Shown: piece after piece, positions 1-1,307 of the stretch
Numbering within the stretch: position 1 is the first letter of the stretch
How the letters are laid out: every line of letters begins with the position of its first letter
Origin: Escherichia coli
Lineage (GTDB): Bacteria > Pseudomonadota > Gammaproteobacteria > Enterobacterales > Enterobacteriaceae
Assembly (NCBI RefSeq): GCF_003334815.1
Contig: NZ_QOWO01000101.1
Length of the DNA stretch: 1,307 bases
Reading direction: 5' to 3' (one strand)
Program-made: the position numbers and the translations under genes
Notes under the pieces: model-generated
The model's database searches: none
What the model saw: only the letters and a program-made list of their open reading frames with translations
Told to the model about the DNA's origin: nothing

Positions 1-50
1 GACCCGCCGCAACGACGAAGAGCGCGTGCGCGAAACGGCGTTGCCCCTCA

Positions 51-76
51 CATCCCGGCGGCCTTTTGCCGGGATG
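51..76. other. GC-rich stem-loop (9-bp stem, 8-nt loop)
   Basis: CATCCCGGC (51-59) pairs with GCCGGGATG (68-76); loop GGCCTTTT. A second small hairpin GCGACCG-GAA-CGGTCGC lies at 111-127. Confidence 0.6.
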
Positions 77-290
77 CCGGGAGCGCAGGTCACGGCGCGA
101 CAGAGGCGGCGCGACCGGAACGGTCGCTGCAAGCCCGGGGTTTCGCGTCAGGGATGGAAGCCCGCCAGGGCGGAGACAGCTCCGCTGGCTCCGTTCACGA
201 CAGCCCGCCCCGCCAGGGGGACGCCCGGAAAAGGCATAAGCAGGAGAACAACAAAACAGACAGTAATCAGAGCAGCAGAAAAAAGAAGAA

Positions 291-353
291 CAGTAGCAGT
301 AGCAGTAGCAGTAGCAGTAGCAGTAGCAGTAGCAGTAGCAGTAGCAGTAGCAG
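291..353. repeat. perfect hexanucleotide tandem repeat (AGTAGC)x10, written CAGTAG x10 + CAG; simple-sequence repeat / VNTR-type tract
   Basis: Ten uninterrupted copies of a 6-bp unit at 292-351, with a partial copy on each side, read directly from the sequence. Imperfect AGC/AGA/AAG triplets precede it (271-290). It produces the poly-Ser, (Ala-Val)n, (Ala-Thr)n and poly-Leu runs seen in four ORF-track translations. Confidence 0.97.
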
Positions 354-425
354 GAACAACAACATCAGTAACAAACAAATGACAGGTCTGAAAAGACAGA
401 AGCCCACAGCAGAACGTCCGCGTAA

Positions 426-459
426 TGAAAGGGGCGGCGCGTCAGCGCGGCCCCTTTCA
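426..459. other. GC-rich stem-loop (10 bp + G.G mismatch + 4 bp stem, 4-nt loop)
   Basis: TGAAAGGGGC (426-435) pairs with GCCCCTTTCA (450-459); inner GCGC (437-440) pairs with GCGC (445-448); loop GTCA. Pairing checked base by base. No clean U-tract follows. Confidence 0.7.
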
Positions 460-605
460 GCGCCACCGGCGCGCGGTCTTTTCCCGGCGCGGGCAGACAG
501 GCATTTATCCTCCCGCCTGCCCGGCGTCTTCAGGCCCGCAGACGAATAATCATCATCGGAACACGTGTATAAGCAAACATGCCGCTCGACAGCTCCCCCG
601 GGAAT

Positions 606-637
606 GCAGAAGACGCCAGCAACGTCTTCTGCTGGCG
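606..637. terminator. terminator-like hairpin made of two overlapping, mutually exclusive palindromes; possibly bidirectional
   Basis: GCAGAAGACG (606-615) pairs with CGTCTTCTGC (623-632), 10-bp stem and 7-nt loop. Alternatively CGCCAGCA (614-621) pairs with TGCTGGCG (630-637). On the plus strand it is followed by TGATTTGTT (T-rich); on the minus strand it lies 9 nt past the stop of the 646..888 ORF and is followed by a pyrimidine-rich UCUUCUGCAUU. Neither U-tract is canonical. Confidence 0.35.
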
Positions 638-645
638 TGATTTGT

Positions 646-888
646 TCAGACCTCTGTCGAGCCGATCCATATACCATTCAGATAAGCATCAAATGCATCG
701 TTCCCCTCCTGCACTTCCTGCGGCTGAACAAGGTTCAGGCTTTCGTGTGTCCAGCCGGCTTCAGGTGCAGACACTTTCAGCAGAAGATGCCCATCAGAAT
801 CACGAATCTCCAGATCAGCAAACGTGTTCCCGGTCAGGATATCTGGTTCACCGGGTCGTTGATCTGTAACATATGTGATATATCCCAT
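646..888 (-). CDS. small acidic hypothetical protein, 80 aa
   Basis: Minus-strand ORF: ATG at 886-888 (complement), TGA stop at 646-648. A GGAG Shine-Dalgarno (plus 896-899, complement) lies 7 nt upstream of the ATG. Protein: MGYITYVTDQRPGEPDILTGNTFADLEIRDSDGHLLLKVSAPEAGWTHESLNLVQPQEVQEGNDAFDAYLNGIWIGSTEV, with 14 Asp/Glu against 3 Arg/Lys. The ORF track extends it to a GTG at 916-918, and an in-frame ATG at 901-903 is also possible, but neither has an RBS. A palindromic hairpin begins 9 nt past the stop. The overlapping plus-strand ORFs (565..906, 579..869) are Cys/Arg-rich and lack an RBS, so the minus frame is preferred. No family recognised. Confidence 0.5.
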   Translation of the reverse strand: MGYITYVTDQRPGEPDILTGNTFADLEIRDSDGHLLLKVSAPEAGWTHESLNLVQPQEVQEGNDAFDAYLNGIWIGSTEV

Positions 889-1046: not shown

Positions 1047-1307
1047 TCACACAGGACTGCTCATGGACTGACCGGCCTGTTGGCTGAAAAGCATCATCAG
1101 TGCACTCAAATCACTGGCTTTTTTTCTGATAACTGGCGTGTGATTTTCCACGCTGTCCAACAGCGCCCCCAGTTCATCATTGATTTGCCCTAACTGTTTC
1201 ATCAGCATTTCCGCATCCAGGCTGCTCTGGTATGCAAGATTTGCCTGAACAGCACGATTCTGCATGATGTCGATTTGTGCGATTGCGTCCTTCTGCTGAT
1301 CACCGGT
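1047..1307 (-). CDS. hypothetical protein, C-terminal portion (5' end probably lies beyond the right window edge); predicted alpha-helical
   Basis: Minus-strand frame is open from the window edge (1307) to a TGA stop at 1047-1049 (complement). Visible 86 residues: TGDQQKDAIAQIDIMQNRAVQANLAYQSSLDAEMLMKQLGQINDELGALLDSVENHTPVIRKKASDLSALMMLFSQQAGQSMSSPV. Codon choice looks like a genuine gene of a ~50% GC enterobacterial-like genome (CTG, CAG, GAA, AAA). The in-window ATG at 1263-1265 has no Shine-Dalgarno upstream, so it is probably an internal Met. No protein family recognised from the sequence. Confidence 0.6.
   Translation of the reverse strand, partial: TGDQQKDAIAQIDIMQNRAVQANLAYQSSLDAEMLMKQLGQINDELGALLDSVENHTPVIRKKASDLSALMMLFSQQAGQSMSSPV

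Follow-up and report, generated by a model that had tools for sequence, protein, structure and literature searches.

The hexanucleotide repeat of an IncF-type Escherichia coli plasmid leading region is the catalogued typing locus VNTR-37 (O157-37)

Introduction

Routine public-health typing of Escherichia coli O157 has, since the mid-2000s, made use of a hexanucleotide tandem repeat called VNTR-37 or O157-37, the instability of which is well documented. The locus is credited to Keys et al. 2005 (PMC3768571) and is in use in the PulseNet protocol (Hyytia-Trees et al.) as well as in the Japanese 17-locus scheme. Among 202 German isolates it displayed 3-17 repeats in 11 alleles, with 2% null alleles and a diversity index of 0.82, and in a long-lived cluster the second commonest profile was different by one VNTR-37 unit (PMC3321953). 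In the Japanese scheme the O157 clade medians are 5-7 units (PMC10062581). During serial passage one insertion and one multi-unit deletion were observed in two of nine strains, which corresponds to about 4.3e-5 per generation (PMC3777172).

Two other described systems are relevant here. The Frpo/ssi class 1 promoters of plasmid leading regions (Masai and Arai 1997; Couturier et al. 2023; Samuel et al. 2024) are elements of roughly 330-350 nt that, by folding, rebuild -35 and -10 boxes and are enough for ssDNA to be transcribed; a 288-nt Frpo2 segment drives acrIIA4 in vivo (Samuel et al. 2024). The contingency repeats of Neisseria, Haemophilus and Campylobacter switch genes on or off; they are placed either in the spacing between the -35 and -10 boxes or within an ORF, where the unit length is not divisible by 3.

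The DNA analyzed here is a window of 1,307 nt from E. coli, to which all positions refer unless one of the comparison loci (L001, L002 and so on) is named. It carries a hexanucleotide array that is the catalogued VNTR-37 (O157-37) typing marker, and thus an already known and ordinary one. Very probably, the array is a non-coding microsatellite of an IncF leading region that changes length unit by unit through slippage, with length changes that are most likely neutral. As a typing marker with documented instability it is a familiar object, and the finding as such matters little. The locus is not specific to O157, however: it really marks the leading regions of IncF-type plasmids and can move horizontally, and this mobility bears on how MLVA profiles are to be read.

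The array and its identity as a typing marker

Tandem Repeats Finder reports a period-6 array with 10.5 copies, 100% matches, 0% indels, a score of 126 and the consensus CAGTAG; the only other row for the window is an 8-mer with 2 copies. The extracted array consists of ten unbroken AGTAGC units at 292-351, and the perfect (AGTAGC)x10 tract of the first-pass annotation is borne out by both the program and the extraction. A perfect 63-nt array of period 6 cannot have a chance origin in 1.3 kb. The idea that the repeat was created by assembly or sequencing errors, or is a low-complexity run due to chance, can practically be dismissed: no supporting point was found for it, while thousands of complete plasmids, each sequenced independently, carry the array with its flanks, and the locus is routinely sized by PCR in public-health laboratories.

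A full-text literature search found a 37-mer of the left flank printed as an MLVA primer. The VNTR-37 primer sequences are given in PMC8461963 and PMC3321953, and their sites bracket the tract (Table 1), so that the suspicion of the first-pass annotation that this might be an MLVA/VNTR typing locus proved correct. The two primers are convergent around the tract, and in-silico PCR predicts an amplicon of 199 bp (240-438). The published amplicon range is 157-274 bp (PMC8461963); both the 199-bp amplicon and the ten units of 6 bp fall inside the published allele ranges.

The comparison with pO157 was made on the RefSeq EDL933 plasmid (NZ_CP008958). Here, the array has seven units (L012 19043-19084), both primer sites are exact and the amplicon is 184 bp; it maps to the same locus and not elsewhere. 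The published allele of EDL933 at O157-37 is likewise 7 (PMC3777172) and is therefore reproduced. Since both primers are exact in this plasmid and the EDL933 allele is matched, the locus is VNTR-37, that is, O157-37. In a BLAST comparison, positions 2-651 of the window align with pO157 of EC4115 at 92% identity.

Table 1. Coordinates of the features in the 1,307-nt window
Feature	Position	Strand	Details and basis
VNTR	291..353	.	(CAGTAG)10.5; Tandem Repeats Finder, comparison with 9 other loci
VNTR-37 reverse primer site GCAGGAGAACAACAAAACAGACAGTAATCAGAGCAGC	240..276	+	Exact, 0 mismatches; 0 expected by chance; pattern search
VNTR-37 forward primer site GCCGCCCCTTACATTACGCGGACATTC	412..438	-	2 mismatches; none expected by chance; pattern search
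Frpo/ssiD-type element, 3' (T-strand) part and conserved GC-rich extension	1..296	+	BLAST, folds
T-poor unstructured linker holding the VNTR	236..420	+ (transferred strand)	185 nt; 10% T, 45% A; composition
GC-rich hairpin	426..459	-	15-nt arms, 93% complementary, 4-nt loop; alignment A1 columns 307-340
Class I SAM-dependent methyltransferase, 3' remnant	530..649	-	TGA stop 532-530; L002 6243-6362, annotated partial
Hypothetical 80-aa leading-region ORF	646..888	-	Window ORF 646-918, annotated ATG at 888; L001 6630-6872, L002 6359-6601
ygeA-like hypothetical ORF, runs past the window end	1047..1307	-	L001 7031-7327, L002 6760-7056

Copy-number variation

Unit counts were read exactly at 11 loci, where nearly all arrays are perfect. 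The lowest count is the degenerate 2-unit remnant of pVir68 (AGTAGA AGTAGC). Seven units are present in pO157 of EDL933, in Salmonella pESBL931 and in ETEC1737 (the latter with one AGTAAC interruption), nine in pO157 of EC4115 and in Klebsiella pJX8-2, ten in the window, 12 in p_STEC1586_1 and pEH01-18-04-A_2, 16 in pEc631_2 and 17 in pW24-1. Two of these plasmids, pESBL931 and pJX8-2, differ by two units while about 70 nt and about 95 nt immediately around the array are identical.

The amplicon was also used as a query against PLSDB and 5,426 complete E. coli genomes. It is matched in 3,901 PLSDB records (Escherichia 3,005, Klebsiella 635, Salmonella 123, Shigella 109) and is present in 2,658 of the E. 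coli genomes. The copy-number spread over the approximately 3,900 matching plasmid records was taken from samples. In evenly spaced samples of the match rankings the full-length spans step by 6 bp (184, 190, 196, 202 and 214), and partial alignments start at successive 6-nt phases within the array, from which between about 2 and at least 12 units per array can be inferred. Where a unit count inferred from a partial alignment was compared with the fetched locus, it held in 3 of 3 cases (H148 with 7, H141 with 10 or more, H176 with 2). Spans of the 184, 196 and 202 type occur among O157:H7 plasmids alone. The O157-37 locus was also seen on Citrobacter and Enterobacter plasmids, and the amplicon query was found at 26 chromosomal places, presumably in integrated plasmids.

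The first-pass annotation took the tract to be hypermutable, its length varying by slipped-strand mispairing while the frame is kept. This is supported by the differences in copy number and by the published gains and losses during passage. It had also named an identical copy number in all related genomes as an argument against variability; with 2-17 units across 11 loci, this is clearly not the case.

The tract itself displays no meaningful secondary structure on either strand: the minimum free energies are -4 and -3 kcal/mol, the centroid is unfolded and neither strand folds better than its shuffles. As there is no stable hairpin on either strand, simple slipped-strand misalignment best explains the change in length. 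Whole 6-bp units would be gained or lost by such misalignment during replication; the mechanism is taken from microsatellite biology, while the length changes themselves are documented. The contrast between pure arrays of 7-17 units and the degenerate 2-unit remnant of pVir68 fits the usual life cycle of a microsatellite.

Some variation is also present next to the array. A second, minor slippage site is found 10 nt to the right of it, in the form of a 3-nt CAT/CAA microrepeat (AACAACAACATCATCAG). The window (CATCAG at 362-368) is one CAT/CAA unit apart from L001, L002 and L004-L010, which have CATCATCAG. A change at this microrepeat moves the size of the MLVA amplicon by 3 bp, or half a repeat unit. 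In some plasmids, p_STEC1586_1 (L006 1100-1190) among them, the sequence to the left of the array has diverged (…CAGTAGTCAGAATCAGAGCGGCAGGAAAAAGAAGAGC) and the reverse-primer site is missing. Plasmids of this kind would yield VNTR-37 null alleles in the PCR despite their 12 units.

Coding potential of the tract

It had been left open by the first-pass annotation whether the repeat encodes a homopolymeric or dipeptide stretch or sets the spacing of a non-coding element. On the plus strand the frames over the tract read Ser-Ser, Val-Ala and one with TAG stops; on the minus strand they read Leu-Leu, Ala-Thr and Tyr-Cys, all open. The six-frame reading thus agrees with its statement that five of six frames are open and that only the plus CAG-TAG frame has stops. 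These open frames speak for a coding role, which could take two forms: a C-terminal poly-Leu segment of varying length (minus strand, CTA-CTG) in a small protein translationally coupled to the upstream methyltransferase gene, or an antisense poly-Ser ORF on the plus strand. Taken together, a coding tract is very unlikely.

The locus has been listed as within ORF L7083 (PMC3321953), which would be the plus-strand poly-Ser ORF. The annotation over the tract is inconsistent among records: a 'pilus protein' or hypothetical protein on the plus strand, a hypothetical protein on the minus strand, frameshifted pseudogenes, or nothing at all.

For the poly-Leu ORF, a common ATG that overlaps the methyltransferase stop (TGATG), an arrangement typical of translational coupling, is present in six of nine loci (L004, L005, L006, L007, L008 and L010). 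The overlap is located at L004 5346-5350, with equivalents in L005-L010 (A1 columns ~409-413). In those six loci the ORF has a shared stop 25 nt past the array and a length of 82-102 aa, and in L006 it is annotated as a CDS. However, the ATG is missing in the window (TGAAG at 528-532), in L001 and in L002, where the array nevertheless stays at 7-16 units, and in pVir68 the ORF is cut to 8 aa. Over the 59 codons before the array the variable sites are distributed 5/6/2 by codon position, and 10 of the 13 variable codons are non-synonymous. The frame further runs through a conserved hairpin with invariant stems and a varying loop, as would be expected for a structural element. CTA is the rarest Leu codon in E. 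coli, and the poly-Leu frame alternates with precisely this codon. A micropeptide coupled to the methyltransferase was therefore judged unlikely, given the start and stop losses and the absence of coding conservation.

The poly-Ser ORF is annotated in pO157 of both EC4115 and EDL933 and is presumably the one cited as L7083. Its boundaries, however, are highly variable: it starts 138, 276, 318 or 555 nt before the array, stops 96, 198 or 201 nt after it, and is absent in L006. The stop in pO157 is a TGA made by the G variant of the polymorphic loop base of the hairpin. The nine variable flank sites are distributed 3/5/1 by codon position, with 0 synonymous against 6 non-synonymous codons. In addition, the ORF is antisense to every gene of the leading region, and PGAP flags a frameshift in L002 and L010. 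No NCBIfam match was found for the poly-Ser or the poly-Leu product. With its variable ends, its non-synonymous pattern and no NCBIfam match, the 'pilus protein' ORF was judged spurious.

For both ORFs it was thus found that start and stop are not conserved and that the third codon position shows no excess of variation. The codon-position tests are based on small samples (13 and 9 variable sites) and are suggestive rather than absolute. With all lines in agreement, albeit on these small samples, the tract is most likely non-coding. Of the two options that had been left open, the homopolymeric or dipeptide stretch is disfavored by the variable ORF ends and the anti-coding substitutions, and the non-coding option is favored. 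Where the literature and many of the records put the tract inside an ORF, be it L7083, a 'pilus protein' or a hypothetical protein, they probably reflect an annotation artefact.

The plasmid context

In a megablast search the window was matched in thousands of enterobacterial plasmids, the best at about 98% identity and none identical. A phage origin was considered and rejected, with no match in the phage collection. In L001 (CP122781) and L002 (pEc631_2) the neighborhood contains traK-traM, oriT, an SLT transglycosylase gene, a DUF932 gene, small hypothetical ORFs, hok, psiA/psiB, a ParB-like gene and ssb. These genes identify the window as leading-region DNA of a conjugative plasmid of IncF type (MOBF/MPF_F).

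The genes of the leading region are all located on the minus strand of the window. In L002 the nic consensus of the F-type oriT, GTGGGGTGTGGTGCT, is found on the plus strand, at a position upstream of the leading genes. Because of its orientation, the plus strand of the window is the transferred T-strand, which is the template for the leading genes.

The usual order in the related plasmids is a DUF3560 gene, a class I SAM methyltransferase gene, 182 nt, the array, about 240 nt and the ssiD/Frpo element, followed by ssb, a DUF905 gene, a ParB-like gene and psiB. The methyltransferase gene is intact in L004-L010 and L012, with the VNTR 182 nt downstream of its end. The window and its closest relatives keep only a 120-nt 3' remnant of this gene. 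The 80-aa ORF adjoining it (Table 1) has no NCBIfam match, and the ygeA-like ORF is paralogous to the ORF next to the DUF932 gene.

In the lineage of the window, a module consisting of a Frpo-like element, a 68-aa ORF and a ygeA-like ORF is tandemly duplicated (L001 5385-7557, L002 5052-7287). The duplicated module and the methyltransferase remnant suggest recombination between Frpo paralogues, a danger to which Couturier et al. 2023 pointed in the case of F.

The spacer that holds the array has a peculiar composition (Table 1) and is hardly structured: the fold of 236-380 (145 nt) reaches only -4 kcal/mol and its centroid is unfolded. The flanks at 1-235 and 421-560, by contrast, have a GC content of about 70% and a significantly stronger fold than their shuffles (z of -2.9 and -3.5, respectively). 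The second flank contains a GC-rich hairpin (426-459), the stems of which are invariant across 10 loci while one loop base is C, G or A. In the sense of the genes the hairpin is followed by UUUCAUU, which suggests that it may act as terminator of the methyltransferase operon; it is not listed by a simple consensus terminator scan of the window.

The neighboring single-strand promoter

To place the tract relative to the promoter, the published Frpo/ssi reference sequences (Samuel et al. 2024, supplement 4) were mapped by BLAST. Positions 1-296 of the window recur 2-3 times per plasmid, and in F both Frpo1 and Frpo2 have them, at 91-95% identity. The ssiD of F covers only positions 2-48, and the end of the Frpo3 of ColIb-P9 covers 75-103. 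The 288-nt Frpo2 segment that is sufficient for activity, together with the core hairpin of the promoter, is located wholly to the left of the window, and in pO157 the array begins 241 nt past the end of ssiD. The array is consequently not part of the class 1 promoter element. Transcription proceeds to the left, which puts the array upstream of the single-strand promoter; the spacer that holds it separates two operons, each of which has been reported as induced early after transfer. The tract is spacer DNA adjoining a single-strand promoter.

A consensus scan of the window for -35/-10 boxes detected no sigma-70-like promoter, and an Rfam scan at E<=1 returned only noise, with scores far under the gathering thresholds. 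A pairing of the GC-rich flanks with the repeat in the loop of a Frpo hairpin was also considered and rejected: the flanks fold locally, and the published core is to the left of the window.

Several further observations were made on the element itself. A 68-aa ORF is located wholly inside the ssiD/Frpo element, just left of window position 1 (L004 4519-4725 and L002 5372-5578, both on the minus strand); in L001 there are copies at 5697-5903, 7351-7557 and 12764-12970 (minus strand). For comparison, ssiD extends over L004 4523-4872 and the sufficient Frpo2 segment over L004 4494-4780. The ORF spans the core hairpin AAAAGTTTTTGCC...GGCAAAAACTTTT, and many records label it 'single-stranded DNA-binding protein', others hypothetical. 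This ORF probably results from a mis-annotation of the non-coding ssDNA promoter. Directly 3' (on the T-strand) of the published ssiD end, positions 49-235 form a block of roughly 190 nt with 72% GC that folds strongly and is kept with every Frpo copy at 91-95% (L001 7700-7890; L003 6080-6270 and 11470-11660), outside the 288-nt segment sufficient for promoter activity. In the fold of L002 a long-range stem of ~5583-5600 with ~5880-5897 closes a domain of about 315 nt.

This setting raises the question of whether the array is a functional cis-element, namely an unstructured ssDNA spacer of tunable length on the incoming T-strand, between the terminator hairpin and the folded Frpo domain. Such a spacer could modulate SSB loading, the firing or priming of Frpo2 or the read-through into ssb-psiB, and would then create heritable and reversible variation in plasmid establishment. 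The position of the tract is compatible with it, as the tract is on the T-strand, directly 3' of the strongly folded, conserved Frpo-associated block, in a nearly structureless stretch between two GC-rich domains. It was also published that SSB stimulates Frpo activity (Masai and Arai 1997, via a citing paper). The arrays are almost perfectly pure, but such purity is also expected from ongoing slippage alone. The distance of 241 nt from the ssiD end in pO157 speaks against a functional spacer, as does the 288-nt Frpo2 segment, which gives early expression in vivo without the whole region. F has both Frpo elements and no hexamer array, and pVir68 carries only its degenerate remnant in the same context. 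The number of units, finally, ranges from 2 to 17 with no compensating change in the length of the flanks. No sign that length matters was found in the position relative to the promoter segment, in F or in the linker lengths. A functional spacer is accordingly considered improbable.

In its strongest form, the array would act as a heritable and reversible 'length dial' in the entering ssDNA that tunes SSB occupancy, the firing of the ssDNA promoter or read-through. If true, the dial would set the expression of ssb-psiB in the first minutes after conjugation, which would amount to a phase-variation-like control of an ssDNA promoter. This form is less probable still and can be regarded as very doubtful.

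The preferred reading remains that of a neutral microsatellite. The VNTR sits in the spacer between the operon of the DUF3560 and methyltransferase genes and the Frpo2/ssiD promoter that drives ssb-psiB. Because the promoter element does not include the tract and no genuine reading frame crosses it, the length changes are most likely neutral; we infer selective neutrality from these two observations. Neutral changes in length would in turn allow the locus to serve as an epidemiological typing marker.

Comparison with known systems

With the contingency repeats of Neisseria, Haemophilus and Campylobacter the array has replication slippage as a common mechanism and an instability of a similar order. 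It differs from them in the features that would permit switching: the unit is 6 bp, there is no conserved ORF and over 240 nt separate the array from the promoter element. It is thus not a phase-variable contingency repeat.

Compared to the Frpo/ssiD class 1 promoters, the array is an immediate neighbor on the T-strand. The 3' end of the ssiD homologue corresponds to positions 1-48 of the window, and positions 1-296 accompany each Frpo copy. The array, in contrast, is outside all published Frpo/ssi definitions and occurs only with the Frpo copy that comes after the methyltransferase gene, F being without it.

The closest described system is VNTR-37 (O157-37) itself. Some differences can be observed between the window and the locus of pO157: the window belongs to an IncF-like conjugative plasmid instead, its spacer is part of a duplicated Frpo module and has a remnant of the methyltransferase gene beside it, its forward primer site has two mismatches and its best database match is about 98% rather than 100% identical. 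What the two have in common is the 6-bp unit, the flanks, both primers, the plasmid location and a copy number within the described range.
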